From: a virus
Virus record (IMG/VR): IMGVR_UViG_3300030098_007301
Location: 99,966-163,965 of that record
DNA: 64,000 bases
Direction: 5' to 3' (one strand)
The position numbers and the translations under genes were made by a program. The notes under the pieces are model-generated. The model saw nothing but the letters and a program-made list of their open reading frames with translations. It searched no databases and had not been told where the DNA came from. Every line of letters begins with the position of its first letter. The stretch's first letter is position 1. Of the stretch, positions 3,401-62,279 are shown in pieces.

Positions 3401-3427
3401 TACAGTTGTATTTACTAATGATGCCAT
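422..3427 (-). CDS. Tail fibre protein
   Basis: 1001 aa Gly/Ser/Thr-rich; GNVGIGTTDP repeats; DLEIYHDGSHSYI and KKFETT modules shared with the upstream giant fibre. Confidence 0.8.
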   Translation of the reverse strand: MASLVNTTVTSAAGSAVALTAKGGNDLVDNILLNLLNQSGATVLNVRNNGAFFGTDGTFTGDLTVTKSSGATRLRIFSTNNDPYISFGDNAANWEVGIDRSSSSIFQISNSSGVPGTSVRMAINSNGNVGIGTTDPGQRKLEVVGAGNFSGIVSTSSSLLVNATANGGFGTIENRQDANTNADGIATVNTGGSSLRLWVDGDHNRIIGAGSTNVFSFTTSAISLLHPVTLTGTLTITSNNNLVLGNGANNTGFFRFYNDNSTAHYIDWKSTGARAYQFLGSSSSADYVTTFKNAGSGGHDLSVCGQFNVLNDAANTTRFYVSADGVVQWGSGAAHGTLTWDTDKAVIGGIGTNNLSLVAEGTEVVNSTSGTWDFKKEARFPNNTGLYWSHADGTATAGIKLDTSDHLDFRTGGSNGRMTLDDAGNLGISRTSPYGKLDIESTDLGSSSGDVSVAIRSQSDVGSNTMYLLEEYVRKSAGTDWTSAGVRLQAKTDSTYQGYVQFNGDSNNYGLSFGAGAGGTSSPGTTAERMRIQSDGNVGIGTTDPAALLEVGGNADEFGLIGKARIGKMFYTGFAAFGHRALGNVEGKYAVLQDADGGSYFNAASGQTVSFRIANADQMVLSSGQLKFVDNKKIIMGTGNDLEIYHDGSHSYIQGTTTGDLYVTSENDDVVIRGADDVFIYTQGGEDAIIARGNAGVDIFHDNIKKFETTGAGVTITGTATATTFSGSGASLTSLNGSNISSGTVAAARLGSGSSITTKFLRGDNTWQTVSGGSGTVTSVATSGAITGGTITTSGTISHSTANGYKHIPADGADLKFLAYASAGTAEWAGGLLNYSDYALFAQRYNDGSSGGALSGGQWNTRILNTTVVNNYTTASAWASLGSNQITLQAGTYYARVWAVAYDIDEQQINLANVNNSNQLMLSAPMSARGNSTLNSAVTMSEGTFAITTNGHKLVAYHWANLAETNTYGGGRPLEGGSTSPIAGIDYDYDTYVSVQIWRVA

Positions 3428-9400: not shown

Positions 9401-12400
9401 GCTTGCTTCAGTATGAAAAGTTAGATTACTGTTTCCTGCTGAACCATAAAAGTTAGCGATAACTGCGTCGGCTGAAGCCCCCGCGGTACCCGCTACAGAT
9501 AACCCCAAACTAACAAATTGCCCGTTTGCAGCAGTGCTATAGTTACTTAACTTTAAAGCATTATCGTTCTGGGCATTGCTTATTGAAGTCGCTGATGAAC
9601 TTTTTTCAACTTGCAAAGGGTTTCCGGGGTCAGCTACTCCTATGCCAACTCCAGTAGATTTAACCACTAAATGATTGTCATTAAAACTTGCGCTAGCATT
9701 AAATTTCAAAGCGGTAGCGGAATGGTCCCATCCTATTTTTGCATTAGTAGCGGTATCCGCTAATAAGAAATAGATATCATGCGAAGCCCCTCCTTTTATC
9801 TCTACGCCAACGTGATTGTCAGTCTGAACTCTAAGAGGTATATCGTTCCCAGCGATATATACGTGAAGCCTTTCAGCTGGAACTGTTGTTCCTATACCGA
9901 CTTGACCGCCATTTAGGAAACTAACTGTCGGCGTAGCGCCACCTGCTAAAAAGTCTAACCTGTCTTCGGTGGCGGTTTTTACAAACTGTATATCGAAGGC
10001 GTTTGCTGCCGCTCCGTTCTTGCTATTAAATCGAAGTTTAGCGTTTCCTGTTGAGGTATTTAATTTGCCAATATTTAAAATAGGGGAGGTATAGTTTAGC
10101 GTTAATTCCCCCGCCATTTGAACTGAAGTATTACTTGGAACTGTGATAATGGAGTCCCCAATCGTATCGGAGTCTGTCCATCTTGGGATAGTATTAGCGG
10201 TACCGGAGCCATCGACATATCCTGCTCCAATCGCCGTCTCTATAATATTTCCGCTGGAGTCTACCGATAATCGGTAAGCAGTAGTTCCTGTATGAGTTCC
10301 GCTGCCGTAAGAATTAAATTGGAGTTGGCCGTCGCCCTTAATAGCCAGTCGAGTGGCCGTGTCAGTAACATCGTAAAATTCTAAAACTCCATTAACAGTT
10401 TGACCATCTACAATTCTCCAATTCTGAGTTGTGCTTCCCGTCTTCTTAATTTCAAAACCTACTGTAGAATTAGATGCAACTTCAGCTTTTACTATAGTGG
10501 TCCCTAAAGTTTTATTAAGATGAAGGAGCTCATCAGGAGAAGTTGTTCCTATGCCAACTTTACCGTCAGATAAAATGCGCATCCGTTCTGAACCGCCAGT
10601 ATCAAAAATTGTCTCGTTAGTTCGTAAGCGGAAGGTCCTAAAACCAGTATTTGCAGTATTGGATGAGAGAACCTGAATTTCGTTTGAAACGCTATCGGGA
10701 TCAACGCGCCAGTTACCTTGTGTGCCTAATACGTTGAATTTTGATAAAGGCGCATTTGTACCTATGCCGACATTACTGTCAGATGTAATACGCATCGCCT
10801 CGTCTATCGTATATTGAGTGCCGGTCCGGGTAACATTAAAAGTTAGAGCTTCGTTCCAATAATTTCCATAAGCAGTAGTTTTAACTGAACGTATATAAAT
10901 TCCGTAGCCAGCTGTCCCAAGACCTCCTAAACGTATTCCTGTATAACCACCTATACCTCCAAGTTCATTTCCTCCAAAATATGCAGCATCTTCTGATGCG
11001 TTAGAGGAGTTTGACCCTGATGTAGAAGGCATTACCTGAAGTCTATTAAGGGGAACAGTTAAACCTACGCCAACATTACCATTAGTCAGAAGTGACATTA
11101 TGTGGACTGGCGTGGCAGTCGGATTAACGGAAGACAAGTCACAAGTAAACGCCAACCTGTCTCCTGTTGCAGTAGTGTCTGCTAGGGCTTGTATTCCCCA
11201 CCACTGTCTATGGTTAGTTGAGTTATTATACGAATTGGAACTGAAATATAGTTTAGGAGAATTGAAAGCGGCTCCTGTGAAATGTTGAAATAGCTGAACA
11301 TATCCATGATGGAACAAATCACCATTGTTCATTCCAACATTTACGTCTAAAGCTGCAACTCGGCTATTGCCAGAATCTGGTTGATTTCTGTGGTAAATTC
11401 TTGCGGTAGGAAGATCGTCTGTGAAACCGCCGTTATGATAAATATCTAACTTTGCTGCTCCGGGCTGATCTGTTCCTATACCAGCACGACCATTGTTTTT
11501 GACAAAGAAGCCTGTTCCCGCTCCTGTATAGGTAGCTAAGGCGTATACCGTGGTTCCCGTGTTCGATGAACAGTCTATGCTTAGGCCATAGCCATTAGCG
11601 TTTGAGTTTTTGATAATAACAGCCCAGTCAGCAGCATTTTCCAGCACGTTGAGCTTTACTCCCGGGTCCGTTGTTCCTATGCCAACTTTACCGTCATTCT
11701 TAATTATGAATGGAGCCGAAGCGTGATGAACATAAAAGAACGTTGAAGCAGGACAATCAGTATCCGAATTATCTTGATTGATAACAAACGGATGATAATG
11801 AAGCCCAGCTTTTCCGCCATCTTGAATCCAAAAAGTATTATTAGAAGATGAGTCAGTTGTTTTGAAAGTTAATCCAGTGCTACCAGCTGTTCCTTTTATT
11901 TCTAATTTTGCATCTGGATCAGTTACGCCTATACCAACATTTCCGTCGGACTTAATGCGCATTCTCTCCAGAATATTTGGAACACTCCCAGAAGCATCTG
12001 AAGTAAAAAACCTCATATCGGAAGTATGAGTTGCTCCCGGCTCCGTTACTTGAATTCTAGCTGTTGGGTTAGCGTGAGTTGTTGTTCTTGTGAAATCTAT
12101 TACTCTAACGTTGCCACTTGATGACCCTATTTCTATTCCGTCATTATCAGCAGAAGCAATAACCTCTAAAGTCTTGCCCGGAGACGCTGTTCCTATTCCA
12201 ACGCTAGCATGACTAACATTTATAACTTTTTCTATATTATCTGTCCCGTGTTCCCTTGCTCCAATATGAACCATGCCTCCATATTGCCCGTCTCCAGCAT
12301 TAGGTCGACTCGCCCATACCCCTGCTAAAACAGTTTGTGTTTCGCTACTGTTGTATGCTCCTCCAAAAGCAATGCCTCCAGCATGGGCATTCGCATAGGT

Positions 12401-14803
12401 ATTAGACGAAGATATTACTACATTTAAATTCAAGCCATTCCAACCACCTGTAGTAGCACCTAAAACGTGCAATCTATGACTAGGTGAATTTGTTCCTATA
12501 CCAACGTTGCCACCCCCTTTAATAGTTAAAGGAGTTATTGCTGTGCTGCTAGTTTTTGTTCTAAAACGTATATCACCGTTACTGTTATTATATGCGTTAT
12601 CTATATAAAGAATTGATGTAGCATTATCGTAAGACAAAAGTCCATGGAAAGCACTCTCTTCACCTAGTTGAATTGCTCCTCCGTCATTCCCTGCAGAATC
12701 CGGACCCCAACCTTTCGCTAATATTTGGGCTGCTGAACTATCAACGACTTCTAAACGTCTGCTTGGACTAGTTGTTCCTATACCAACGTTGCCATTAGAC
12801 AGAATTGATAAAGCTGCAGTTCCAGCATTAGTGCCAACAGTTGCGTTTACATTAATGTCAAAACCTTGACTGGTTATAAGCTGTTGACTGCCAGTAGATT
12901 TAGCGGCCAATAATAAACCCCTTGTTGCAGAATTTTGTATTTGTAACGTTGCTGTCGTGCTTCCCGCATACGGCCTCCAGTCGGTTGGGGTTCCTTCTGA
13001 TACAGTTAAATGATGATTTGTGGCGGCTGCATTAGTGACGTCAAATACTCCGGCTCCTCCTACTGTTATAAATTTATATACGGGATTATCTGTTCCTATG
13101 CCAACATTGCCGTTGTCATTTATCCTCATCCTCTCTACCGTATCAGTAGAAAAACCTACCTCAAAAGCTAGCCCCGCTCTTGCATTACCTGTGTTTAAGT
13201 TAACTGCTTGAATCCTAGCTCGTGTCCTAAACGAATCTTGAAATTTAATCCCCCATTTATCCGACGCAGTATTTCTGTTATTATCAAGTGTTAATACGTC
13301 TAAATCTGCACCCCCAGCATGAGTAATCTCTGTTTTGCCGTTGTTTAGAACAGTGAATATCGCCCCGTCAGCATTATTCATCACGTTAAGCGCGATGTAA
13401 CTAGCAGACGCATCACGCCCTCTAATAGCTAAAGCGGTGTTTGCAGTAGTAGTAGCTGCGTCAACAAATAAACGACCATAAGCGGAGCTTGTTGAACCAA
13501 TAGAAACATTGCCGGTAGTATTTATGGCAAATGTAGCATCGGCATCATTCACCCCTTGAGGAATAATAAAAAGGCTATCGTCATTTCCATTATTTCTTAT
13601 CTGCCACTTTCTGTCACTCCCCCTGAAGAAATCAATTCCTATGTCATTGTTGCCCGCTGCAGACTGCAATTTAATCATTGCAGATACAGAGCTATAAACT
13701 TGAAATATGCTATCGGGACTAGTTGTTCCTATACCAACATTACCGTCAGACTTAATCCGCATTTTTTCTGTAGCGGAAGCGGAGCCATCAGGCGTAGTTA
13801 AGAAAAGTAAGCTGCTAGGCATGTCGTTAGCAGCAGCTGTAGCCTCCATGGAAGCAAAAATTGTTGCCATCGACTGGAAACTACTTCCATTGTAACCCTG
13901 AAAAGCTAAAGCTGGACCTTGAGCTGCGGGCAACCCCGCAGTGGGATTACTAAGGTCTTTAGCTCTTAACTCAACAACAGCTATACCTCCGTTTTCTCTA
14001 GTTTCGAAAGCGGCTGCTGCCTGATTAGTTGTCTGAATAACCTCTAATTTTCTAGCTGGAGATGCAGTTCCTATACCAAAATTGCCGCCAGTAATATAAG
14101 AAACGTTATCTGAATCTAATCTTATGGTTTCAACTCCCCCGTCCTTCTTTATGGAGAGCCTTCCGTCTCCAAGAGTTTGACGAAATACTAATAAGCTATC
14201 TCCGTCATGAGCGGATATTTGTAAAGGGTTAGCATTGTCTTCAATACTTTTTATGCTAAGGGTATTGTTAGGATCGGCAGCTTGATTGATTCCGACTGCT
14301 ACTCCGTTATCTTGTATAATACCCGAAGTTATAGTATCCTCATCAGACCACCGAGCTACATAATTAGCAACGCCGGAACCTCCAACGCCGGATAAAACAG
14401 ACTCAATACTTTTCCAATTAACGCCGGTTGTTCCCTCATTAGTGAGGACCATCCCTCCCTCTCCAATCGAATTATTAGAGTCATAAATGTTTCCAGATAT
14501 GCCTAGTTTATTAACATTAAGCCGATTACCGTCAGTAAAAGTTAAATCAGCATCACCGCCGAAAGTTCCCGCGTTATTAAACTGGACTTGAGTGTTATCT
14601 CCGCCGGGAGTGCCTCCACCTCCGCCTCCACCAGCTAGCTGAGACCATTGAGAAGTGCCTCCAACTGTTCTTCTAACAAACTGAGTAAGATTGCCGGTGT
14701 TAATATAATACGCGCCATCCAATACCCCGGTAAGAGTCGCATCACTGTTTGGTGAACCGACATTACCTACAAATCTATCTCCTGCGTATCTTATTGTTGC
14801 CAT
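3428..14803 (-). CDS. Giant repeat tail fibre with C-terminal peptidase S74-type intramolecular chaperone
   Basis: 3791 aa; about 35 GNVGIGT-like repeat junctions counted by eye; C-terminus SSIAIKENV...IRPVKY...IGLIAEEL..LFPELV...VNY plus coiled coil is the S74 chaperone signature. Confidence 0.88.
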   Translation of the reverse strand: MATIRYAGDRFVGNVGSPNSDATLTGVLDGAYYINTGNLTQFVRRTVGGTSQWSQLAGGGGGGGTPGGDNTQVQFNNAGTFGGDADLTFTDGNRLNVNKLGISGNIYDSNNSIGEGGMVLTNEGTTGVNWKSIESVLSGVGGSGVANYVARWSDEDTITSGIIQDNGVAVGINQAADPNNTLSIKSIEDNANPLQISAHDGDSLLVFRQTLGDGRLSIKKDGGVETIRLDSDNVSYITGGNFGIGTASPARKLEVIQTTNQAAAAFETRENGGIAVVELRAKDLSNPTAGLPAAQGPALAFQGYNGSSFQSMATIFASMEATAAANDMPSSLLFLTTPDGSASATEKMRIKSDGNVGIGTTSPDSIFQVYSSVSAMIKLQSAAGNNDIGIDFFRGSDRKWQIRNNGNDDSLFIIPQGVNDADATFAINTTGNVSIGSTSSAYGRLFVDAATTTANTALAIRGRDASASYIALNVMNNADGAIFTVLNNGKTEITHAGGADLDVLTLDNNRNTASDKWGIKFQDSFRTRARIQAVNLNTGNARAGLAFEVGFSTDTVERMRINDNGNVGIGTDNPVYKFITVGGAGVFDVTNAAATNHHLTVSEGTPTDWRPYAGSTTATLQIQNSATRGLLLAAKSTGSQQLITSQGFDINVNATVGTNAGTAALSILSNGNVGIGTTSPSRRLEVVDSSAAQILAKGWGPDSAGNDGGAIQLGEESAFHGLLSYDNATSILYIDNAYNNSNGDIRFRTKTSSTAITPLTIKGGGNVGIGTNSPSHRLHVLGATTGGWNGLNLNVVISSSNTYANAHAGGIAFGGAYNSSETQTVLAGVWASRPNAGDGQYGGMVHIGAREHGTDNIEKVINVSHASVGIGTASPGKTLEVIASADNDGIEIGSSSGNVRVIDFTRTTTHANPTARIQVTEPGATHTSDMRFFTSDASGSVPNILERMRIKSDGNVGIGVTDPDAKLEIKGTAGSTGLTFKTTDSSSNNTFWIQDGGKAGLHYHPFVINQDNSDTDCPASTFFYVHHASAPFIIKNDGKVGIGTTDPGVKLNVLENAADWAVIIKNSNANGYGLSIDCSSNTGTTVYALATYTGAGTGFFVKNNGRAGIGTDQPGAAKLDIYHNGGFTDDLPTARIYHRNQPDSGNSRVAALDVNVGMNNGDLFHHGYVQLFQHFTGAAFNSPKLYFSSNSYNNSTNHRQWWGIQALADTTATGDRLAFTCDLSSVNPTATPVHIMSLLTNGNVGVGLTVPLNRLQVMPSTSGSNSSNASEDAAYFGGNELGGIGGYTGIRLGGLGTAGYGIYIRSVKTTAYGNYWNEALTFNVTRTGTQYTIDEAMRITSDSNVGIGTNAPLSKFNVLGTQGNWRVDPDSVSNEIQVLSSNTANTGFRTFRLRTNETIFDTGGSERMRILSDGKVGIGTTSPDELLHLNKTLGTTIVKAEVASNSTVGFEIKKTGSTTQNWRIVDGQTVNGVLEFYDVTDTATRLAIKGDGQLQFNSYGSGTHTGTTAYRLSVDSSGNIIETAIGAGYVDGSGTANTIPRWTDSDTIGDSIITVPSNTSVQMAGELTLNYTSPILNIGKLNTSTGNAKLRFNSKNGAAANAFDIQFVKTATEDRLDFLAGGATPTVSFLNGGQVGIGTTVPAERLHVYIAGNDIPLRVQTDNHVGVEIKGGASHDIYFLLADTATNAKIGWDHSATALKFNASASFNDNHLVVKSTGVGIGVADPGNPLQVEKSSSATSISNAQNDNALKLSNYSTAANGQFVSLGLSVAGTAGASADAVIANFYGSAGNSNLTFHTEASNTLAERMRIQSDGNVGIGTDAPASLLQLLSDGAHDEGAEIFLKHANNNTTDIVGTILFGNNVGGVAMIQGGTTGANNTGYISFSTDNAGTSSEKVRIIGDGNVGIGQIAPKADLHIGGSFSDAANDLGTAALAIKQTGTSAENGIYIERTGERKGYYIGISGVDGLTFRRNFSGTKSDIMSLTRDGNVGIGTTNPANALHVHGSADGFGYIRITDGGLGATATDGARIGYNSSALRIQNYENSNISFFTNNTTEALTIQNDGNVGIGTDAPATIFHIHTDSASAQEVFFDNNGVGPVGITFRTDFATNAGLANFIRFDAEDDGGNNTRYSTIESFIVDNTDTEEDGRLTFSTIVAGTDTETMHVVGGNVGIGINNPNARLKVQTSNTDVAIFQSTHATTANFYLSNNTATANNTSNLYFCPANGINGASVRAIAIEDFSTSANRTADLFFETRKDGTMSEKMRILADGNVGIGTDAPAALLNLFKTGANDAVSSAIYLQRAAGNYGCAILQVGNGTAGTEKLMFTAGHNSDPMSITNAKMTIQQDGKVGIGTTGPDSKLEIAGGGYNSSLKIKGSGADTGIQFEDSAGNTDGYIYANGGMVGFLDAGTHWTIQCKDDDYIKFLTNNGTEHMRITSVGNVGIGTGNPTGKLQIGANYTIPGTAYGGNDIYIANTGSHSDYDPSVTNTDDFRALIAISDGTTTGPTKPGLILYNDDTTAGGFSPMLLFAKRETGSSPYKAATAAIYARSPLGTGNSDSWIDGELIFATAGAATQGIRQRMVINKEGLVGIGTNNPGYLLHVQGTGPDLLKLRATTAGSATAPKIHFEHSSGGTQTADIVFDQSGQNKLKFTTYYQSATDGNLIQFAPADTVAMTIRGGTGSSAGFVGIGTTDPGKLLELVGGGLRLPNGESIDWNNENTRILGSHNSNKIQFDVGGVSNVLYLSNGSVGVGTNSPVEKLDVVGKQRITQNIVSNNTYQMLAFGSNRPIDDYGGLNKDYWRINVVTPGANTTGESNGHSQGDLRFSGVTGSNTTYADRFVIRFGGNIGIGTNTPATRLHVEDSTANTTATKITVQGGSLGFTLGKAQTADHYAHLRPLADNAMALRVMPNGTTVRESYVEVWNKDYENAANSTSWHRGMFYIDTSNDVYLRADGLGTAGRVYIGTENNTQTLTVQDSGNVGIGITNPSAKLYVNGATYINSDLTVDGNINFETKGDYITFFGDNNAHHSISSRNSSGNADDDIRINTYGGLFINLDSNGNDNAESHQRFQIGRHAGTGAVSASDLLLNLSGVTGMFTLYKYGSGTHTGTAAYKLSVDSSGNVIETAIGAGAVDGSGTANKVTKWTDSDTIGNSQITDNGTSVGINVSPNAANKLEVNGQLRATTGIFGNSSVSNVAAKPIHIKFGGTAALRLEDSTSSNYVYDISADFTNGFRITDVTSTLVPFTIAKTTGSVGIGTTSPAQKLHVQGTTSIVHIESSTANANASVWFKSNVGGTVANRWEIGTNISAGSSLEIYDRLNSASRMVVKNDGNVGIGTNNPGTILHIKQNDAVGPTISLTNNSKTSYINLWGATGGGTDRTNQFEINAVNTGYGLTLASTDYVRFKTNGITASDEAMRITSDGSVGIGTITPGQRLDIINGAIRISSSGETKIFFRETVAADTYADRWTIGNDDAINNAFVFSTGANFASPKLVISDDGNVGIGGDPVGDLMISRGTSAGAEIQFHGTDTAYHRLGIRKTGSRLDMGEYNNAGSALTPILTVDGDGDRVGIGTTSPEASLHVNGIVRVGVDDAGHDVRFFGATSGRYWEWDESMDLVRMRDNVKSVYGNGDDLQIYHDGSNSYIKEASTGDIILDTNSNIRFKSSTEHLLNATANGAVELYYDNSKKFETTSGGVTVTGTLTETSSIAIKENVETYTPSLDIINKIRPVKYNRKENKKKKEIGLIAEELAELFPELVEKDEKGNPSSVNYSRAVTVLLGGFKELYKEVQELKKRI

Positions 14804-33313: not shown

Positions 33314-33322
33314 AACGCAAAT

Positions 33323-38630: not shown

Positions 38631-38703
38631 TTTTAACAAGGTATATAGTGTGCGGCAATGGGGAAAGCCGTCTTGTTATAAAAGACCCCAACTCTCATAA
38701 CAC

Positions 38704-38744
38704 CGCCCCGTCGAGACCTCGCATGCTCGGCGGGGCAATTTTTT
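38704..38744 (+). terminator. Intrinsic terminator
   Basis: GCCCCGTCGAG...CTCGGCGGGGC then T-run. Confidence 0.7.
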
Positions 38745-41890: not shown

Positions 41891-42013
41891 GGGGGTTGAA
41901 TTACCTTTAAGCGTCCCGCTTTGGATTGTTTCGCCTTGGTTCTGCGTTTCCCAAGGTTTTTTTGCCAAAGCGGGAGAATCTCCTGAGACAGTTATACGTC
42001 TCCTCATAACACT

Positions 42014-42041
42014 AACCCGCGGCCTACGCCGCGGGTTTTTT
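42014..42041 (+). terminator. Intrinsic terminator
   Basis: AACCCGCGGC-CTAC-GCCGCGGGTT then T-run. Confidence 0.8.
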
Positions 42042-45560: not shown

Positions 45561-45592
45561 AAAAAAAATCCCCCACTCTTTCGAGTGGGGGA
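45561..45592 (-). terminator. Intrinsic terminator
   Basis: TCCCCCACTC-GAAA-GAGTGGGGGA then T-run on the minus strand. Confidence 0.8.
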
Positions 45593-45627
45593 AGTAGTGT
45601 TATGAGGACTACTACTGAGGGGGGATT

Positions 45628-45831: not shown

Positions 45832-46809
45832 TTAACTCGGATTACCTTTTTCCAATAATTGTGGATTTTTTTCAAACATTTCTTTGGCGGCAACTGATAA
45901 CTGTCTACCATGAGTAGATACCTCAATAAAATTTAATTTTTGCAAGTATATCTCGGCATCAGATTGAATTGCTGCTCTAGTCATTTGTAATTTGGCGGCC
46001 AAATTATATAGACGCACCGTACCCTCACGATGTAAGGTTCTCAGGTAACGGAGTTCGGTCTTGTTCAAACCGTGCGGCATGATATCTAAAATCTGACATA
46101 ATTCCTGCCAATCAGATAATTTAAAAGTTTTAGTATTATTCGCCGCTACATAAGATTTGATATTAGTTGCCATCTTTTGAGCAGCACGACCATTACCCCG
46201 TAAAGCAGGAGCAATATGTTTTGATACGATATCACCAGAGAATTTAATCTTCTCAGTATTAAGTAGAAGTATCTGACCTAATTCGTCATAAGAATAATCA
46301 TCCAAATCAATCCTCTCCATCCTGTCAATCAAAGCATGGAATACTTCTTGTGGTTCAGTAGTGGCGAACAAAAATGTGAGTTTTTTAAAATCAATCTCAA
46401 TATCCGCGCCTTCATAACTAAAAGTATTAGAGTTATGTTTATTAGGATTGGTGATAGTAAGCAATGCCATTGTTACATCCTTGGGTAACATATGACACTC
46501 ATCGAATAAAAATGTAGCATCTTCATTCTGCATATAGGGAACCATAATCTGCTCAACAAATTGTCTGAGATTTTTAATCGTAGCGCAATTCAACTCGATG
46601 TAACGCTTGGGTTGCATCGTGTTAGGCATGACAAGATTCCGCGCAAATGCCCTTGCGAGCATCGTTTTACCCGCGCCCTTGGGCGCGGTAAGCATGATGT
46701 TAGGGACAATCCCTGTCCTTTCAAACGCTCTGATATAAAACTCAAACTTACGCTTGGCGGGATACTGTCCGATAACCGATGGAAACAATGTGTTAGATGT
46801 AGTAGTCAT
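45832..46809 (-). CDS. ruvB: RuvB-like AAA+ Holliday junction branch migration ATPase
   Basis: VIGQ, Walker A PKGAGKT, Walker B FLFDECH, ATT, DR, RG..R sensor, GL...E..YL and C-terminal E.YL....FI.....GR winged helix. Confidence 0.8.
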   Translation of the reverse strand: MTTTSNTLFPSVIGQYPAKRKFEFYIRAFERTGIVPNIMLTAPKGAGKTMLARAFARNLVMPNTMQPKRYIELNCATIKNLRQFVEQIMVPYMQNEDATFLFDECHMLPKDVTMALLTITNPNKHNSNTFSYEGADIEIDFKKLTFLFATTEPQEVFHALIDRMERIDLDDYSYDELGQILLLNTEKIKFSGDIVSKHIAPALRGNGRAAQKMATNIKSYVAANNTKTFKLSDWQELCQILDIMPHGLNKTELRYLRTLHREGTVRLYNLAAKLQMTRAAIQSDAEIYLQKLNFIEVSTHGRQLSVAAKEMFEKNPQLLEKGNPS

Positions 46810-46819
46810 AACTGAGTAG

Positions 46820-46848
46820 ATAATAGAAGATTCGGGGTCGTAAGTCAA
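46820..46848 (-). promoter_or_regulatory. Early sigma70-type promoter
   Basis: TTGACT-17-TATTAT-10 nt-ATG. Confidence 0.75.
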
Positions 46849-46872
46849 CCCCGAAAATCATATTTTTTTATT

Positions 46873-54526: not shown

Positions 54527-55210
54527 TCACTTCTCCAATACGTTGCTCCAATAACGTGAGTTTTTACGCTTCTGGTTTTTGTCCCAGTACAAGCACCGCG
54601 CCATGTAAGGTGCGATACCTCGCTGCTCGCTACGGTCAAGCCAATCCGCTTCAATCGCATCGTATAGCTTCGCGTCCTTCGTTTGATTCAACCCATATAC
54701 TTGGAACAAGTGAGTGTCCATGCAAACTACTTGGGCTTCAAGCGGGAACAACATCTCTATTGCGAAGGAAGTTTTTGCCTTACCCAAACCAAGAATCTTC
54801 TTGGCAAGCCTATCACGCCACTCACTCCATTCTTCGCCAGAATTGCGATTGATATAGTCGCTAGGGTCATTCCAAAAAGTATCAGAAAAAAGGCCAATAT
54901 AATTAGTTCTGTTATTCTGCATACCCACTCTGGTATCTCTAATACGTTTAAATAAATCATCTGCATCATAATTCCAAAGTTCTAGTTGATTAGTCTTTTC
55001 AAGTGTCCACTTGCCAAATTGCTTGATTGCATTGTACCCCTTGCAGTTGTTCTTCCAACTCGTATGCACCGACATGAAGGCGAACAAGTAGCGGCGAAAA
55101 GCGGCGTTGTTTGATTGGGGTTTCAATTCGCCCCAGTAATCGTTGTAGGATTCTATATCCTTATCTTTGATTGAATCAAAGAAGCTCTCAACTTTTGTAG
55201 TAGTAATCAT
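54527..55210 (-). CDS. HhH-GPD superfamily DNA glycosylase/AP lyase
   Basis: Helix-hairpin-helix ILGLGKAKTSFA followed by catalytic-type VVCMDTHL. Confidence 0.7.
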   Translation of the reverse strand: MITTTKVESFFDSIKDKDIESYNDYWGELKPQSNNAAFRRYLFAFMSVHTSWKNNCKGYNAIKQFGKWTLEKTNQLELWNYDADDLFKRIRDTRVGMQNNRTNYIGLFSDTFWNDPSDYINRNSGEEWSEWRDRLAKKILGLGKAKTSFAIEMLFPLEAQVVCMDTHLFQVYGLNQTKDAKLYDAIEADWLDRSEQRGIAPYMARCLYWDKNQKRKNSRYWSNVLEK

Positions 55211-55335
55211 AAAAATAAAAAATATGTTTTGCGGTTAGTGTTTTTTAGCAGTCAAAAATCCTGCCAGAGACTTATATTGGACTAAATCACGAAAAACCCA
55301 AATGCTCTGACAGAATCATTGTTATGACTACTACA

Positions 55336-56178
55336 TCACTTTTTAGTGGAAAGCGAATCCACTAAATCCTTTTTTGCTGCCTCGTAGCCAGCATCAAAGC
55401 CATTATCCCAATGCGTATTCTCATCGGAACCCTCATCATCTAATTCGACATACTCACCGTAATCATCACACATTGGTTCTTCCAACTTCTTTTCAAAATG
55501 CGAAACCACCTTGTACTTTGCGGTGCGTAACTTTTGCTGGTCGCAATCCAACGGAACGCTAACAACGTCACGGGGGTCGATTTCAACAACCATTAAATGC
55601 CCTCCATTGCCGTATCCTTTAGCGTATTCCAAGCTACCCGCATGAAAACCATGAGAACATCCAATGTTAGCGTCATCGCAGACATTATTACGAATCATTT
55701 CATGCTCATCACCGACTTGGTTGCGGAATTTGCCAGAATGCCAATCAGTATAATCGTCTCTCACGCCTTTATAGGCGAGAAAATTACCATCGGGAGTCAG
55801 CGGCATCGCCTTGTGTTCAAGGAATGCGTACAACTCGTTAACTGCTCGGCGTGATGGATTCTCCATCAGCTTATCCAAAAACCTCACCAGAGGCTTATAA
55901 GGCAATCCCTGACGCATAAAATCGAGGACTCGACCTACAACGTGATTGTGAATCGCTTCACCTTTATAGCGAACCTCGCCATCGGAAACCGAAATGTTTC
56001 CATCTGCGAATTTTTCGACCGCTTTTGGAATGTCGAATAAGTTAGGCAATTCATCAAATCGTTCCTCTGAAAGAAGTTTGGTTGCCTCGTTGAATGATGG
56101 ATTTGTACCTTCCATCGTTAGTGCTTTGCCATCTACTATAATGGTCAGCGAGTTATCAGTTAATATATACGGTAACAT
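55336..56178 (-). CDS. rIIB: rIIB-like protein
   Basis: FL..L.ENPS, LY.FL, LTPDG.FLAYK.V, M.RN.V.DD...CS.G.H.G...YA and V.IDP.DVVSVP.D...K.R..KY.V. Confidence 0.88.
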   Translation of the reverse strand: MLPYILTDNSLTIIVDGKALTMEGTNPSFNEATKLLSEERFDELPNLFDIPKAVEKFADGNISVSDGEVRYKGEAIHNHVVGRVLDFMRQGLPYKPLVRFLDKLMENPSRRAVNELYAFLEHKAMPLTPDGNFLAYKGVRDDYTDWHSGKFRNQVGDEHEMIRNNVCDDANIGCSHGFHAGSLEYAKGYGNGGHLMVVEIDPRDVVSVPLDCDQQKLRTAKYKVVSHFEKKLEEPMCDDYGEYVELDDEGSDENTHWDNGFDAGYEAAKKDLVDSLSTKK

Positions 56179-56196: not shown

Positions 56197-58602
56197 TTAG
56201 TTAGCTTTCAAAAATGTATTCTCTGAGAATTTTACAAGTAAATCAGCGTTTGACTGTTTTGTTTTTTCTATCTTTTTTTTAAGATTATATGTTGCCTCAA
56301 CTATACTTATATAGTTCAAGGTAGCTTCCATCGCTTCACGGTGATTTCTCCAACCAAAATGAGAATCATCCATAAACCTAACCATTGGATATCTCTCCAT
56401 CAGTTCAAGATTCACCTTACACAAATCAAAAGTAGGTTCAATATCATCTAATATAGAGCGTGTATTAGGACGCATGATATTATCTTTACCCTCATCATTG
56501 TCTCTGAGATATCCCCTATGATAATTTTCTTCATCGTATTTAGAAGCACCAACGAGTCGAAATGCCGCTTCCAATTTATCCAAGTCTCTATCGGTTTTTC
56601 GTATCATCTTGGTATAATTATCGAGATAATCCTTCGCGGGAGATTCTACCAAACCAGAATGAAAATCGTCATTCCTTTCATTCATTTCCAAAAATGCCTC
56701 GGTGAACATATCGTTCCTATCGCACTTTTTCTCATGGAAATTAGCGAATACCCTGTCATATAATCTCTGCTTGAGATTATTGTCATTCAAGTAACTGGCA
56801 AAAGCAGCAGTAGCCCAATCCTCGAAATATACCCACTTGGAATCTTTTGCTTCGATAGCATTCTCATTCTTTTCAGTACCCTTTAAAGCGTAAATCTCAG
56901 GAACGTCGATACCGCAATCTTCTAATGCTTTTACTTTGTTATGCAATGCTTGAGGATGACTGGAACCTTCAACGTGCTTACCCCAATAAAATTTATCTAC
57001 GATAACGTAAACACCTCCATTATCTAAATCTACCTCATTTGACTGAAAGTAATCGCTGCGACAAGTATGATAATTTCCATAACTAGCAGTTTTATCCAGA
57101 GAAAAAACCTTGGTGCTATGTTTTGAGTTTTTAGTGGTAGTGCCGCCCGATACAGTTGAATTGCTTGGGTATATATCACGCAATACAACCTTGGGATACT
57201 CTGACAATTTCTTTGTCGCAAAGTCGAACTTGGTTTCATCGTAAAACTCCTGCTTGGCTTTACTATTGCGGAAATTTAACAAGTAAACGCTATCGTACAC
57301 GGGAGTATCCTTGTGGTTTTCATCACGCTTATCGTAATTTTCCACTAAAGGCGCGATACGATTCAATCTACCATGATGCGAAGGCATATCATCTATAATT
57401 ACTAAAGTGTTAGACTTTACATAGATGTTTTGAGCTTCGTCGCCCTTCACTCTCCTGCGAGTACCATAACCATTAGGTTTACTAAAATACTTTAACTCAA
57501 TAAGCTCATCCTTCCATTTTCTCTTGGAGAACTCGCCATTAGTAACCTTGATACCATTCCATAAAATACCCTTGGTTTCGACTATCTTACGAATCTTTTG
57601 CCCAAAACCTCCATGTCGAAAAGCCTCATTATATAAGTGCTTTACCTCCCATAAAGTATCGCATTCTTCAAACTTCTCGCCCAAAACACTTGGCAACTCT
57701 TTGATAATCTCGTTGAGCTTGTTAATAATGACTTTTTTGGTGGAGTCAGTATATTGTAATGCTTCCCGTGAAGCGGAAATTTCTAAATCACCGATAGCAA
57801 AATCAATTACAACGCCTGACGAAATCAAATCAGTTTTTTCATCCTGCCAACCTATGTTTAACGCACCAGAAGATAATGGATAGGCAATGTTGCCCATGAC
57901 CGCATAAGAATCACCTTTTACAAGATTCCAGTTGTCCTTGCCAACCACAATCTCATCGCGTTTCAAATCATTCTTTAGTTGCTCTTGGTTTGCTCCGCGA
58001 ACATTTGGAATAACTTTGAAATACTTATATAGATTAGTAGCTTTACGATAAAACTCATCATAATCATCAGACTTTACCGGAATGACAATTTCAATACCAT
58101 CATTCTCGTCAGTCTTTTCCGAGTGAATCTTGGAGATTTGCCCAACATCAGATGGGTCGATGAAAGCGTTGTAGGTTGTTTTAGTTCCCTTAACGAATGA
58201 GTTGATTACGAAATTATCACCGTATGCAAACGCTGATTTTGAACCGAGGCCGAGTTGCCCGATTTGCTCGTTTGTGCCGCGCTTGGTAGATTCACCGTAC
58301 ATCGCGTAAATCTCAGATACTTGAGTTTCTGTTAAGCCGCGCCCAAAATCACGCACCTTGAACTCAGGAGTCATTTGAGTTGGCAAAGTCACTTTAATAG
58401 GAGTGTCTGCTTTACCCACTTCAATATGAGCGTCTACCGCATTAGTAGAATACTCGCGGATAACTGCTAAAACCTTATCAGAATATAATTGATTTCGCAG
58501 TACATTAAAGATATGGGACAACCCCGATTCTTTGATTCCGAACGAAACCGATTGGAAATCGTCGGATTGTTTTAGTGTCGCTTGCTTTGATGTAGTAATC
58601 AT
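56197..58602 (-). CDS. rIIA: rIIA-like protein (GHKL/Hsp90-like ATPase N-terminus)
   Basis: LYSDK.LAVIREY.TNA.DAH, VRDFGRGL, YGESTK and IG.LGLGSKS.FAY; adjacent to rIIB. Confidence 0.88.
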   Translation of the reverse strand: MITTSKQATLKQSDDFQSVSFGIKESGLSHIFNVLRNQLYSDKVLAVIREYSTNAVDAHIEVGKADTPIKVTLPTQMTPEFKVRDFGRGLTETQVSEIYAMYGESTKRGTNEQIGQLGLGSKSAFAYGDNFVINSFVKGTKTTYNAFIDPSDVGQISKIHSEKTDENDGIEIVIPVKSDDYDEFYRKATNLYKYFKVIPNVRGANQEQLKNDLKRDEIVVGKDNWNLVKGDSYAVMGNIAYPLSSGALNIGWQDEKTDLISSGVVIDFAIGDLEISASREALQYTDSTKKVIINKLNEIIKELPSVLGEKFEECDTLWEVKHLYNEAFRHGGFGQKIRKIVETKGILWNGIKVTNGEFSKRKWKDELIELKYFSKPNGYGTRRRVKGDEAQNIYVKSNTLVIIDDMPSHHGRLNRIAPLVENYDKRDENHKDTPVYDSVYLLNFRNSKAKQEFYDETKFDFATKKLSEYPKVVLRDIYPSNSTVSGGTTTKNSKHSTKVFSLDKTASYGNYHTCRSDYFQSNEVDLDNGGVYVIVDKFYWGKHVEGSSHPQALHNKVKALEDCGIDVPEIYALKGTEKNENAIEAKDSKWVYFEDWATAAFASYLNDNNLKQRLYDRVFANFHEKKCDRNDMFTEAFLEMNERNDDFHSGLVESPAKDYLDNYTKMIRKTDRDLDKLEAAFRLVGASKYDEENYHRGYLRDNDEGKDNIMRPNTRSILDDIEPTFDLCKVNLELMERYPMVRFMDDSHFGWRNHREAMEATLNYISIVEATYNLKKKIEKTKQSNADLLVKFSENTFLKAN

Positions 58603-58612
58603 GGCGAAGATA

Positions 58613-58641
58613 AGCATACGGCAAGCGGGGAACCTTGTCAA
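58613..58641 (-). promoter_or_regulatory. Early sigma70-type promoter
   Basis: TTGACA-17-TATGCT-10 nt-ATG. Confidence 0.75.
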
Positions 58642-58753: not shown

Positions 58754-58999
58754 TTATGAATTAGCCTCGTCCAATTTATCATAATACTGATAAATTACCT
58801 TGGCATCCTCTCCCTCAAAAAAATAAAAATTATGAGGTTCCTCTAACCAATCATTCTTTTCATCATCAAACGTGTAGCTTTGCGTTTCGGGCAAATAGTG
58901 TTTATTTGACATTTTTTCATTCATAATTGGTCTATCTACGCACTCGCTATTCAAAGGCCATTCAGGAACTATGTGTTTATTTGGCGTTTTTTCATTCAC
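58754..58999 (-). CDS. Hypothetical protein with two NEK.PNKH-type repeats
   Basis: GTGA-coupled to the upstream gene. Confidence 0.5.
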   Translation of the reverse strand: MNEKTPNKHIVPEWPLNSECVDRPIMNEKMSNKHYLPETQSYTFDDEKNDWLEEPHNFYFFEGEDAKVIYQYYDKLDEANS

Positions 59000-59190
59000 A
59001 ATTCATCTACTATTACACTAGCGATGCTTTGTCTCGCGGCCTCGGAATCAAAATTTATTTGGCTCCTCTCTGTTCTTATCTGGTCTAAAACTTCTAAAAT
59101 CTTCTCGCGCAAAGAATCTTTGTCGTATTCCCAAGTAATATCTTTATTCTCCACTATATATAAGTGTTTATTTGGCATTTTTTCATTCAC
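58996..59190 (-). CDS. Hypothetical protein
   Basis: GTGA-coupled; starts MNEKMPNKH. Confidence 0.55.
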   Translation of the reverse strand: MNEKMPNKHLYIVENKDITWEYDKDSLREKILEVLDQIRTERSQINFDSEAARQSIASVIVDEL

Positions 59191-59423
59191 GATTGACTTT
59201 GTAATCTTTTTCTTATTATATGTTTCGCTTCCTTCTCAAACTCATTATATTCTTCTTCTGTCATCTTATCATATTCTTCCTCCGATAAATTCTCCATTAC
59301 GTAAAGAGATAATTCCACTTCTTCTTCCGTCGGGTATCTCATTTCATTTTCTTTACCCGGCGGAATCTCGCCTAACCAAACCACCGTTCTTCTGTCTTGA
59401 ACGTCTTCAGGATTCATTGTCAT
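59187..59423 (-). CDS. Acidic hypothetical protein
   Basis: 78 aa in a packed run. Confidence 0.55.
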   Translation of the reverse strand: MTMNPEDVQDRRTVVWLGEIPPGKENEMRYPTEEEVELSLYVMENLSEEEYDKMTEEEYNEFEKEAKHIIRKRLQSQS

Positions 59424-59425
59424 TA

Positions 59426-59698
59426 TTAGTGTTTATTTGGCCTTTTTTCATTCGCTTCTGCGAACATTGGTTGGCTGTACTCGTACCCATTATGCTTCTC
59501 TTGCTTCCGGCCTTGTTTATCTATATAAAACTCTTTATTTGGGGGTAAATCACCTTCAAAGTCATCCCAGTTAAATTCTTTTTCAAGGGCTTCAAGGTTG
59601 TTCATTCCTGCCCAAAACAAACCTCGCCCGTCTTTATCATTAGAGAGGGTAAGCATCCCTCTGCGAGCCATCTTAAATAATAGTTCTTTATAAGTCAT
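59426..59698 (-). CDS. Hypothetical protein
   Basis: 90 aa ending NEKRPNKH. Confidence 0.55.
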   Translation of the reverse strand: MTYKELLFKMARRGMLTLSNDKDGRGLFWAGMNNLEALEKEFNWDDFEGDLPPNKEFYIDKQGRKQEKHNGYEYSQPMFAEANEKRPNKH

Positions 59699-59865
59699 TT
59701 ATCACTTTTGTTAGTTAAACTCCACGCAAACATACAAACTGTAAAAATTATTAGTCCTGACGCAACTTGTAAGGCTAGTTCAATCATACTAGGTATTGAG
59801 ATGCTAAATAACAGTTCATCGCAAGTATTGAGAATATCAATACCCACCAAGCTATTATCTCTTTT

Positions 59866-60081
59866 TTAGTCATGTTTTTTTATAAATTCTGCGACTTCCT
59901 TCATCACCGCTGTGGCTTCGGTTAGTTTACGTTCCTGCTCAGGCGTAATGTGTTTATTTGGCGAAAAATCATTCGCAATTAGACATAAAACGTTGATAAG
60001 GATCATTAGGCAGGTGAAAAAGTTCAACCATGCTATAAATTTTAGCGGCCGAAGATCTCTTTTTTCTGTTGGAATAATCAT
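59866..60081 (-). CDS. Small membrane protein
   Basis: One TM helix. Confidence 0.55.
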   Translation of the reverse strand: MIIPTEKRDLRPLKFIAWLNFFTCLMILINVLCLIANDFSPNKHITPEQERKLTEATAVMKEVAEFIKKHD

Positions 60082-60090
60082 TTATGATTA

Positions 60091-62067
60091 TTATATGCCT
60101 AATGCTTTTTCTAGACTACTTTTTATCTTATCCTCCGAAAGATAATCCATTGTAAATTTCTGACTAGCTATTTGTTTATTTGCCCATTCCTGCTTCTTAT
60201 TTGTAAAATCTTCGTAAGCTTTTCTTAACTGTCTCCTAGTATCTTCAAAATCTGGTTCAACCAATTTCATCTCAGAGGAATAATTGCGGCTCCATCCAGC
60301 ACACCTTAAAGACTCCCACCTACTTTTGATAAAATAATTATTTTCATGTATATAATCTAAATGGCCTCCTTGGTCGGGAACGACAACCCTTATACCCTTC
60401 GCTAGAGCTTCAGCTATTGTAAGCCCGAACCCTTCTCCTCTCGTCGTGGTCGCATACAAATCTATGTTTTGGTACAAGCTGTTTATTTGTTTGGATGTTA
60501 TCCCTCCCCACCATAATTTAATTTGGCACTTCGGTAGTTGGCGGTAACGCATACAATTAAGCTTAAATCTTTTTATAGACTCTAGGGCTTGTGACTTTTC
60601 ACGGGGTAGATTTTGTTGCCCAAAGGTCTTTATAGTAAGCTCAACATTTTCTTCTTCAAAGAATTCACATAAAAAAGCCTGTATAAGTATATCAAAGCCT
60701 TTTCTATCTGACCATTGCGACATAGACAATATTCTAAATTTATCCGAATTAATTGTGTCGGTAGACGTTGTTAAGTTTATTGAATGAGGGACTAAGTGGA
60801 CAGGCTTATCTGTAACTGAACTTAAGTTATCTTTTTGCAAGCGGCAAAAGGTTATTAATTCGTCAAAATATTTATCGAAAAAAGCCTTCCACATTGGAGG
60901 AGCCCCTTTAGGCTCCCAAGCTACAAAAGCTATTTTTTTGCTCGCGTTGGCAATTATTTGTGATATATCAAAGCCACATTTTCCACTACTCCATTCCATA
61001 TTGTCCTCTCCCGGCTCTATATGGTAAAGTACAGTATACTTGTCGGGGATGCATTTAAGGCCTCTAACTAAGGATTTTTCTAAGTTATATGGCTCTTCTC
61101 CATAATCGCCGCCTGTTACGTTTATGGTTTTTATTGATATCTTGGGGTGATTACTTAATATTTTAAAATAACCCCTAATTGCATTAGCATAACCTGTAGG
61201 GCCGCTAAAGTTGCCAATATATACTACATTTATTTGCTCCTTTTTATTTAGGGCTTTTATTTGTTTTCTCCAATGGTTTTCGCCAAGTCCGCTGAAAAAC
61301 TCACATATAGTAGAATTGCCTCCCCCGAAGTGAGGCTCAGTTTTTTCTTCAAGTAAATTGCAATTGTGAGAAGTCCGATTTATTACATGGCTAAAAACAT
61401 CAGGCCCAGATAACCAAAGGACATCATAATCTTCTTCTATCTTTATTCTTCTTTTTAACCTTGTTGAAATTTCTTTTAAAAGATCTAGGACGATGCAATT
61501 ATCTTCAGGGGTATAAATAAGACTATTTACAATTCTCCGTCTGTCTTCTGGTTGTAAATCAATTTTGTATTTATCAGAAATTTTTTTAATTTCTTCTTCA
61601 GGGCTTTTAATGATAGAACTATTTTTAGGACTATAGATAAGTCCATTGCAAATTCTTCTTTTATCTTCCGGTTTCCCATTTCTATTTTTAAAGTTAGCTG
61701 AAGCTTCTTGTTGTTCTAGGGAAATATATCTTTCAACAACAAAAAAAGGCTTACTAGGATCTTTTTCAATTAAATCTCTAACAAAAAAAGACCTAAAAGC
61801 GGCATCATAGTCACTATAAATTCCTCCGTATTCATGGAGTATACAAAGGCGCGAAACGTCAGAAAGTATTACTGGATACTTTGCATACTCTTCAAAACAT
61901 ATAAGTAAATTTTTATCTATTTTCTCGGCGATGCTTTTTATTTCTGGCAAGTCCGAATCAGACCATTCTCTTATAGACCAGCCGGGCAAGAATTTTCTAA
62001 CGCTTTCAAAATAGCAATCGTACGTTACTTTATTTGGCCCAAACCAAATATTATGAATCAAATTCAT
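60091..62067 (-). CDS. Fused glycosyltransferase: DxD sugar-binding (GT32-like) plus GT-B (GT4-like)
   Basis: IHNIWFG and SDVSRL.IL.EYGGIYSDYD; then GYANA, RKGFDIL and RGEGFGL.IAEALA.G. Confidence 0.85.
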   Translation of the reverse strand: MNLIHNIWFGPNKVTYDCYFESVRKFLPGWSIREWSDSDLPEIKSIAEKIDKNLLICFEEYAKYPVILSDVSRLCILHEYGGIYSDYDAAFRSFFVRDLIEKDPSKPFFVVERYISLEQQEASANFKNRNGKPEDKRRICNGLIYSPKNSSIIKSPEEEIKKISDKYKIDLQPEDRRRIVNSLIYTPEDNCIVLDLLKEISTRLKRRIKIEEDYDVLWLSGPDVFSHVINRTSHNCNLLEEKTEPHFGGGNSTICEFFSGLGENHWRKQIKALNKKEQINVVYIGNFSGPTGYANAIRGYFKILSNHPKISIKTINVTGGDYGEEPYNLEKSLVRGLKCIPDKYTVLYHIEPGEDNMEWSSGKCGFDISQIIANASKKIAFVAWEPKGAPPMWKAFFDKYFDELITFCRLQKDNLSSVTDKPVHLVPHSINLTTSTDTINSDKFRILSMSQWSDRKGFDILIQAFLCEFFEEENVELTIKTFGQQNLPREKSQALESIKRFKLNCMRYRQLPKCQIKLWWGGITSKQINSLYQNIDLYATTTRGEGFGLTIAEALAKGIRVVVPDQGGHLDYIHENNYFIKSRWESLRCAGWSRNYSSEMKLVEPDFEDTRRQLRKAYEDFTNKKQEWANKQIASQKFTMDYLSEDKIKSSLEKALGI

Positions 62068-62279
62068 TAAAAACTGCCTTTAAGAATAGTTATTCCTTGC
62101 GGCGTAGGCGGATTTAAAGCTGAAGGCCCAGTGGTCTTATGTTTATTTGGCTGATTTTCGTTACTATTTGGCATCCATTCCCATTTAGTAGAATGGCATC
62201 CGGAGGTCATAAAGCCTATAAAAATAATAATTACCAACAGGCAAAAGAAAACCCTTTTTGGAAGCGTGTCTGGACTCAT
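62067..62279 (-). CDS. Putative lipoprotein
   Basis: Hydrophobic stretch then TSGC. Confidence 0.5.
   Translation of the reverse strand: MSPDTLPKRVFFCLLVIIIFIGFMTSGCHSTKWEWMPNSNENQPNKHKTTGPSALNPPTPQGITILKGSF

Follow-up and report, generated by a model that had tools for sequence, protein, structure and literature searches.

The subject of this analysis is a short RNA segment, here called the anti-start box, which directly follows the rIIB gene in a 64,000-nucleotide (nt) stretch of viral DNA (IMG/VR virus record IMGVR_UViG_3300030098_007301, positions 99,966 to 163,965; the whole stretch is referred to as the window, and position 1 is its first letter). The box is complementary to the start regions of three genes on the same strand: rIIA; the next gene after rIIB, named dsX here; and a gene for a RuvB-like protein. 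The genes and elements at the rII locus, listed in the direction of transcription, are as follows.

58613-58641, minus strand: rIIA promoter (TTGACA-17-TATGCT), ending 10 nt before the ATG, with a predicted leader of ~3 nt.
58588-58605, minus strand: GCCAUGAUUACUACAUCA, the 5' terminus of rIIA with its start codon; pairs with the box over 15 contiguous positions, one pair being G-U.
56197-58602, minus strand: rIIA gene, from the ATG at 58602; PHROG 612 RIIA (E 9e-115), with a HATPase_c domain.
55336-56178, minus strand: rIIB gene, 280 aa; PHROG 609 RIIB (E 4e-72), with its stop codon TGA at 55338-55336.
55342-55366, minus strand: hairpin P0, 9 bp, within the last rIIB codons and adjoining the box on its 5' side; seen in the window's close clade only.
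55321-55338, minus strand: anti-start box, a 17-mer plus the U of the UGA stop; its core, GUAGUAGUCAUA, is nearly invariant in relatives.
55305-55316, minus strand: 5' strand of stem P2, AUUCUGUCAGAG; 12 pairs, 11 of them changed on both sides, 93% of cells paired.
55270-55304, minus strand: asymmetric internal loop (CAUU / NUGUAAGU) and variable apical stem P3 (55300-55296 with 55282-55278).
55258-55269, minus strand: 3' strand of stem P2, CUCUGGCAGGAU, followed in the window by 4-5 U.
55246-55254, minus strand: 3' arm of stem P1, UGACUGCUA; pairs with 55333-55325 and is thus an alternative partner of the box.
55200-55212, minus strand: dsX start region, UUAUGAUUACUAC; 13 pairs with the box, 125 nt downstream of it.
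54527-55210, minus strand: dsX gene, 227 aa, the next gene after rIIB; no Pfam, PHROG or PDB match at threshold.

Read on the minus strand, positions 55337-55321 are GATGTAGTAGTCATAAC, the first base of which lies inside the rIIB stop codon. In the original prediction, made from the letters of the window, this segment (GAUGUAGUAGUCAUAAC) was said to be perfectly antisense to the predicted RuvB-like mRNA over its opening 17 nt, and this is confirmed: the exact reverse complement, GTTATGACTACTACATC, lies at 46812-46796 and spans the RuvB-like ATG. Pairing with the rIIA start, put at 14 nt, extends over 15 bp including one G-U pair (with ATGATTACTACATCA at 58602-58588). The pairing proposed for the start of the next gene holds over 13 bp, again with one G-U pair (TTATGATTACTAC at 55212-55200); for the glycosylase label attached to that gene there is only a sub-threshold Ogg-HhH match (E 0.028). 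The N-termini of the three partner proteins are MTTTS, MITTS and MITTT as described, and the two pairs of hairpin arms that had been named, GTAGTCA/TGACTGC and CTGTCAGAG/CTCTGGCAG, exist at the locus.

Relatives were collected by protein-seeded scans, which yielded 12 and then 65 viral contigs, and 80 marine metagenome contigs were added; ~290 further metagenome relatives were found and lie outside this set. Lineage labels (L001, L006 and so on) denote relative contigs, and helix lengths are contiguous pairs unless stated. The window derives from an uncultured marine phage. Megablast found no near relative among deposited cultured phages, and the rIIB protein is at most 45% identical to that of any cultured phage, so there is no annotated or experimentally studied relative. 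The box and a hairpin 3' of rIIB are carried by ~60 distinct marine viral or metagenome sequences, in a constant order: the box (core GTAGTAGTCATA), P2, the internal loop CATT / NTGTAAGT, the apical stem P3, the return strand of P2 and usually 2-5 T. In the box alignment T15, C16, A17 and T18 are invariant and A13, G14 and A19 are conserved in at least 90% of relatives. In 36 of 39 distinct contexts, 3-17 nt separate the rIIB stop codon from the TCAT that follows it, and the G of the box opposite position +5 pairs with AUU-type and ACU-type starts alike.

The hairpin covaries strongly. Across a 59-sequence alignment 92.5% of the cells of P2 and P3 are paired and 15 of the 17 pairs have changed on both sides; pairing falls to 39-54% in slide controls with the partner shifted by one to three columns. 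The internal-loop bases are invariant or more than 90% conserved while the stems covary, and the G-U pairs of the hairpin are compatible only with the mRNA-sense strand. Among all 4227 Rfam models, searched at E up to 10, there were chance-level matches only (11-15 bits, against gathering thresholds of 39-90). With a covariance model built from the hairpin we found a single copy in the window, and elsewhere rIIB-linked copies only; 22 new loci suggested by a gapped pattern scan of viral contigs were set aside as chance matches, none of them scoring with the covariance model and all appearing unrelated by eye. We conclude that the hairpin is a new, single-copy, rIIB-linked structured RNA, with the 17-mer as its 5' flank, and the alignments support the box as a real and conserved segment, predicted to be capable of standing single-stranded beside it.

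What this hairpin does for the operon is partly indicated by its position. As in a terminator, a covarying stem (P2 of 12 bp, with P3) stands directly after the operon's last stop codon, and sister clades carry canonical terminators in its place. The U run that follows consists of 2-5 U in most lineages and is missing from the L001 and L081 groups, and a terminator scan did not call the hairpin on the minus strand. It is probably the operon's 3' hairpin, acting as a leaky terminator or a stabiliser, and also keeping the box exposed.

On the other side of the box, hairpin P0 shows compensatory changes despite lying in coding sequence (GTGG/CCAC becomes GCAG/CTGC in L010 and GCGG/CCGC in L025), and read on the plus strand it resembles a terminator. 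An antisense small RNA running from the plus-strand GTTATG (55321) to the terminator-like hairpin at 55342-55366 was rejected because the -10-like element is not conserved (it is absent in L045 and L001) and the U run weakens in L004. Short open reading frames (ORFs) at the locus, comprising one of 13 codons on the plus strand, one of 10 codons on the minus strand within the hairpin and the start-stop UGAUGUAG, were likewise discarded, as none is conserved in relatives.

The length of the 17-nt match is in itself weak evidence, because Markov simulation gives ~0.75 exact inverted 17-mer pairs per 64 kb, with at least one in 45-49% of simulations. The window holds four such pairs, and the three besides that of the box are A-rich or promoter repeats. 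By a rough estimate, a pair with one arm at a start codon and the other in a same-strand intergenic spacer occurs in a few per thousand windows, which is not compelling for a scan of many windows. Two observations take the complementarity beyond chance: the exact 11-mer ATGAYTACTAC has only four copies in the window, namely the box and the starts of three of its ~90 genes, and the pairing is both conserved and compensated in relatives. When boxes and starts were permuted across lineages, the native mean duplex was reached in none of 2000 permutations for dsX, in 15 of 2000 for rIIA and in 3 of 2000 for the RuvB-like start. Covariation, proposed as a check on the original prediction, is found in the rIIA and dsX helices, which are kept or compensated, but the RuvB-like helix is lost in four of 11 lineages.

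The start of rIIA is the partner that reaches furthest. The TTG at 58641, which the ORF tool took as the rIIA start codon, is the -35 box of the rIIA promoter, and in most lineages with a recognisable, properly spaced -35/-10 pair, L098 among them, the promoter ends 9-10 nt before the ATG. Neither rIIA nor dsX has a Shine-Dalgarno (SD) sequence upstream of its start, and the helix with the box covers the AUG and the 5'-terminal nucleotides. It measures 14-18 bp in 18 of the 23 distinct lineages, with ten pairs changed on both sides where row shuffles give 4.5 ± 1.5 (0 of 500 shuffles as many). L006, the rIIA of which is 45% identical, pairs CUUAUGAUUACCAA with UUGGUAGUCAUAGG, and L098 pairs GGUAUGAUUACUA with UAGUAGUCAUACC, both compensated. 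In a set of sister clades (L099-L102 and L131) a GC-rich terminator follows rIIB, and a box to the clade's own rIIA 5' end still lies between stop codon and terminator: in L099 and L100 GGUUAUGAUUAC pairs with GUAAUCGUAUCC, the latter directly 5' of the ordinary terminator that replaces the hairpin, and in L102, also with an ordinary terminator, UUGCUAUG and AUUAC pair with GUAAU..CAUAGCAA. The native duplexes of L099, L100 and L102 rank 0-1 of 33 when compared with the starts of other loci. Among the most distant lineages the bases upstream of the AUG, at the predicted 5' terminus, covary with the 3' end of the box. In still more distant rII phages nothing of the kind was seen. Because the box of L006 and L098 keeps the rIIA helix without pairing to the next gene or to the RuvB-like start, the rIIA 5' end is, as far as comparison of the relatives can tell, the oldest and deepest partner of the box, and it lies at the front of the same predicted operon.

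The start of dsX is the thermodynamically preferred partner in the predicted folds. When the region from the box to the dsX start was folded, the minimum free energy (MFE) structure was a helix between box and dsX start enclosing the hairpin in 15 of 17 lineages, and RNAalifold gave the same helix for 56 sequences, with four compensated pairs; in the favoured fold the start is thus paired to an upstream segment. The changes that preserve this helix are informative. In the L001 group, the rIIB of which is 94% identical to that of the window, the box is short by two nt (GTAGGTCAT), and five substitutions in dsX codons 2-3 (ATT ACT to ACC TGC) restore 11 bp. In L035 and L081 insertions in the box are matched by an extra dsX codon, and two helices flank a small loop. 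No promoter with proper spacing, and none that is conserved, was found between the box and the dsX ATG.

The original prediction held that the box could switch, and the folds make this plausible: the outer stem P1 forms in the MFE structure when the dsX start is excluded, and the box lies on the dsX start when it is included. None of 3000 permutations gave duplexes between the box and its 3' flank as good as the native ones. The register of P1 varies among lineages, and the stem is weak or absent in L006, L095, L098 and L081. A three-element switch specific to the dsX arrangement would fit this distribution: the lineages with little or no P1 are just those that lack dsX as neighbour.

These observations are best accommodated, in our view, by an anti-start helix at the level of RNA. 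The core of the box, GUAGUAGUCAUA, would pair with the AUG and 10-14 nt around it at the near-leaderless 5' end of rIIA, at the SD-less start of dsX and, in a sub-clade, on the leaderless RuvB-like mRNA, and a start codon so paired would be hidden. A ribosome terminating on rIIB would cover and unwind the box, so that the mask would be opened by translation of the operon itself; that a terminating ribosome would reach it follows from the 3-17 nt that separate the rIIB stop from TCAT in nearly all contexts, taken with the general size of a ribosome footprint. As a consequence dsX would be coupled to rIIB and re-initiation on rIIA would be metered. Closure of the 5' end may also protect the operon mRNA, and in the window's clade the 3' arm of P1 would serve as a weaker second holder of the box when it is off a start. 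We lean slightly towards this reading, in which the box acts in cis on rIIA and dsX, is opened by ribosomes terminating on rIIB and possibly acts in trans on the RuvB-like mRNA.

Several points weigh against it. Where transcription starts, and that rIIA, rIIB and dsX share a transcript, is inferred from consensus motifs and spacing. The rIIA pairing is only 9 contiguous bp in the L001 and L081 groups (in L081, 15 bp with one bulge), and joining the rIIA 5' end to the box requires a 3.3-kb intramolecular loop, which is entropically costly. Pairing with the next gene fails in the distant L006 and L098. In three lineages the stop codon lies 27-63 nt upstream of the box. Both the box and its targets are built on (AGU)n/(ACU)n triplets, and after a register shift by 3, 51-62% of cells remain paired, which means that covariation can be mimicked by slippage. 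Finally, kinship of the lineages means that the permutation counts overstate independence; the clear independent compensations number about six to eight. As for the position of the stop codon, the rIIB frame of L053 and L074 ends 45-63 nt ahead of the box, which may reflect a truncated gene, a frameshift or an assembly error.

The RuvB-like gene, from which the original prediction had started, has the following features.

46848-46820, minus strand: RuvB-like promoter (TTGACT-17-TATTAT), 7 nt before the 17-nt site.
46796-46812, minus strand: GUUAUGACUACUACAUC, the predicted 5' terminus of the RuvB-like mRNA with its start codon; perfectly complementary to the box over all 17 nt.
45832-46809, minus strand: RuvB-like AAA+ gene, 325 aa; matched by phmmer to RuvB structures over its full length (E 3.5e-11), with the Pfam domains RuvB_C and AAA.
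45569-45615, minus strand: end of the RuvB-like unit, with a box (GUAGUAGUCCUCAUAAC), 6 nt and a canonical terminator; conserved in relatives, the terminator stems covarying.

Its match to the box heads the original prediction, but the relatives do not support it as the core of the system. The helix measures 14-18 bp in seven of the 11 distinct lineages and falls to 5-8 contiguous bp in the other four (L034, L019/L015, the L081 group and L098), L034 having lost it though its box is identical to that of the window. Complementarity here may be created or mimicked by slippage, because the box is built on triplet repeats and the (ACT)n run coding for N-terminal Thr, which is microsatellite-like, varies from two to six or more units (L013, L015, L017, L034, L047 and L055). 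The RuvB-like mRNA is likely a secondary target of the box in one clade only, as judged from these alignments. We note also a 10-bp GC-rich hairpin at 46831-46855; its loop contains the RuvB-like promoter's -35 box, and it may be a combined terminator and promoter. Covariation between the 5' and 3' ends of the RuvB-like unit itself was looked for and rejected, the 3' box being invariant while the 5' end varies, and a RegA-like parallel (rII plus clamp loader) was weakened by the finding that the AAA+ gene is RuvB-like over its full length.

The same gene also bears on the trans model that follows the original prediction, in which the box and hairpin are released, by termination or processing, as a stable small RNA from the 3' untranslated region (3' UTR) that is antisense in trans to the RuvB-like, rIIA and dsX mRNAs within a wider network. 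A seed followed by a hairpin and a short U run does resemble small RNAs from 3' UTRs, and the seed would be framed by P0 on its upstream side. Of the three duplexes, that with the RuvB-like start is the strongest (-27 to -32 kcal/mol where it spans 14-18 bp), its native mean is rarely reached by permutation, and in L047 and L048 two paired positions differ from the window on both sides of it. Elsewhere in the genome some boxes fit the 5' ends of other units better than that of their own: the one at 42001 has a 10-nt match to the GUUAUGAGGA starts at 33316 and 41535, against only 7 nt at the start of its own unit (41633). Set against this, the RuvB-like pairing is lost in lineages that include one with the window's exact box; the apparent compensation in L047 is equally expected from triplet-repeat extension on both sides; and the hairpin, followed by few U or none, is not called by the terminator scan, and dsX requires read-through. 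We regard release as a trans-acting small RNA as doubtful.

A broader form of the cis reading would make each transcription unit a closed loop: throughout the genome a unit would end with an anti-start box, set between its last stop codon and its 3' hairpin, that pairs with a leaderless 5' AUG, and the terminating 70S ribosome would melt the helix and be handed to the freed AUG. Leaderless mRNAs prefer 70S initiation, and for that reason translation would sustain itself as long as ribosomes are moving along the mRNA and shut itself off once they have stopped; one box might also cross-talk with other units. As a genome-wide rule we think this quite unlikely.

That the box and the three starts are instead DNA sites, one of them inverted, for a DNA-binding regulator or recombinase, with RNA pairing as a by-product, strikes us as improbable. 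The four ATGAYTACTAC copies do lie promoter-proximal or at unit ends, the inverted repeats bracket the rIIA-rIIB block exactly, and sites of one protein would also co-vary. The adjacent helices, however, use G-U pairs that are valid only in sense RNA, and in every one of the 23 rIIA lineages the base of the box that faces U is G, not the matching one. The bulged or loop-interrupted pairings of L035, L081 and L102 preserve RNA helices and not a fixed DNA site, the box follows the stop codon and the terminator position, and the orientation is the same in all ~90 contigs, with no sign of inversion. Nor do we give much weight to incidental complementarity, in which the box is simply the 5' flank of a 3' hairpin or terminator and the genes share M-(I/T)-T-T or a Thr microsatellite for reasons of protein or translation efficiency: exact 17-nt inverted matches are common by chance, the RuvB-like (ACT)n length varies among relatives and part of the box is used in P1, but the sole copy of the 11-mer outside the three gene starts is the box, the box is still present in clades that have an ordinary terminator instead of the hairpin, and the non-triplet compensations (5'-terminal GUU/GGU/CUU/GCU with AAC/ACC/AGG/AGC, and ACCAA with UUGGU) are hard to explain other than by selection for pairing.

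Full-text literature searches found no description of this arrangement, and the anti-start helix that we favour differs from each of the systems it recalls. The closest is icaR of Staphylococcus aureus, for which Ruiz de los Mozos et al. (PLoS Genet 2013) reportedly described a 3'-UTR motif that pairs with the initiation region of the same mRNA. As in icaR, the motif here is conserved, lies in a 3' UTR and is complementary to an initiation region of what is inferred to be the same mRNA; the icaR pairing has been proposed to block initiation and affect decay. The icaR motif is an anti-SD sequence, UCCCC, directed at an SD in a long 5' UTR, whereas the box matches the AUG and very 5' end of a near-leaderless mRNA that has no SD. 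The box also adjoins the last stop codon and matches two further starts, and its effect is predicted from sequence.

In the RNA phages MS2 (the coat-replicase, or Min Jou, interaction) and Qbeta, long-range pairs mask a start with an upstream segment that is opened by ribosomes. The likeness lies in a hidden start with its mask upstream on the path of the ribosome, by which a downstream cistron is coupled to an upstream one, predicted here from folds. The MS2 mask is inside the coat coding region, whereas the box lies 0-17 nt after a stop codon and would be opened by terminating ribosomes only; the phage here has double-stranded DNA, and its box has a further match at the 5' end of the operon to which it belongs. 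In read-through transcripts of phage T4, hairpins mask the starts of e, soc, I-TevI and gene 49, and there too a start codon is tied up by sequence lying upstream of it. Transcription from late promoters within the hairpin lifts the T4 mask; between the box and dsX, by contrast, no conserved promoter was found. CpxQ, SroC and DapZ represent trans-acting small RNAs derived from 3' UTRs; they share with the box a conserved seed just upstream of a 3' hairpin and complementary to the starts of other mRNAs, and they differ in that the U run here is short or, in some lineages, missing, where they have a canonical terminator tail, and in that the best partners here are in cis. Unlike all of these, the box would target a near-leaderless AUG, sits at a stop codon and would serve several starts.

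Leaderless mRNAs have no 5' UTR in which to hold regulatory structure, and their control and stabilisation are poorly understood. In this phage the partner that regulates the 5' end appears to sit at the opposite end of the operon, beside the stop codon. If terminating ribosomes do open the mask, the arrangement would be a simple bacterial analogue of closed-loop translation. The family adds a new structured RNA motif linked to the rII genes, and its natural compensatory variants allow clean experiments. It also hints at a wider rule in abundant uncultured marine phages, of an anti-start box just before the 3' hairpin of a unit.

The genome of the window holds further boxes of this kind. Its early promoters stand directly on start codons, in the form TTGACT, 16-17 nt, TAnnnT, ~7 nt, GTTATG, with predicted leaders of ~3 nt. 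Three canonical terminators, out of nine strong ones, are directly preceded by boxes complementary to leaderless 5' ends (CUCUCAUAAC at 38692, CUCCUCAUAAC at 42001 and GUAGUAGUCCUCAUAAC at 45615-45599). In all three (38692-38735, 42001-42037 and 45569-45615) the box is at most 7 nt before the terminator and ends in CUCAUAAC, the complement of the 5' ends GUUAUGAG shared by early mRNAs; the third additionally carries GUAGUAG. The rIIB box belongs to the same class and differs in that an unusual hairpin stands where the others have a terminator. An antisense start-codon network, as originally proposed, is partly supported by the presence of other boxes before terminators in the same genome and by start complementarity kept in relatives, but the best-conserved partners lie in cis.

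Several other repeats occur in the window. The sequence GTTATGAG has 18 copies against 1.7 expected, between 33034 and 47279 and mostly 7 nt after TTGACT-16/17-TAnnnT promoters, and for this reason many early proteins begin M-R-(D/E/G); its recurrence suggests that the first codons are constrained by the RNA or the promoter. Between 35343 and 45364, five to seven copies of an element of ~80-116 nt stand between transcription units, with palindromic boxes TAAGTCGTTGA..TCAATGACTTA around a GC-rich spacer. Giant minus-strand genes at 1790-14090 contain more than 20 repeats with a nearly fixed nucleotide junction, GTTCCTATACCAACATTACCGTC on the plus strand. Upstream of rIIA, at 58887-60202 and 62139-62175, a 37-42-nt repeat, GTGTTTATTTGGC.TTTTTTCATTCA, is present in six to seven copies among small genes.

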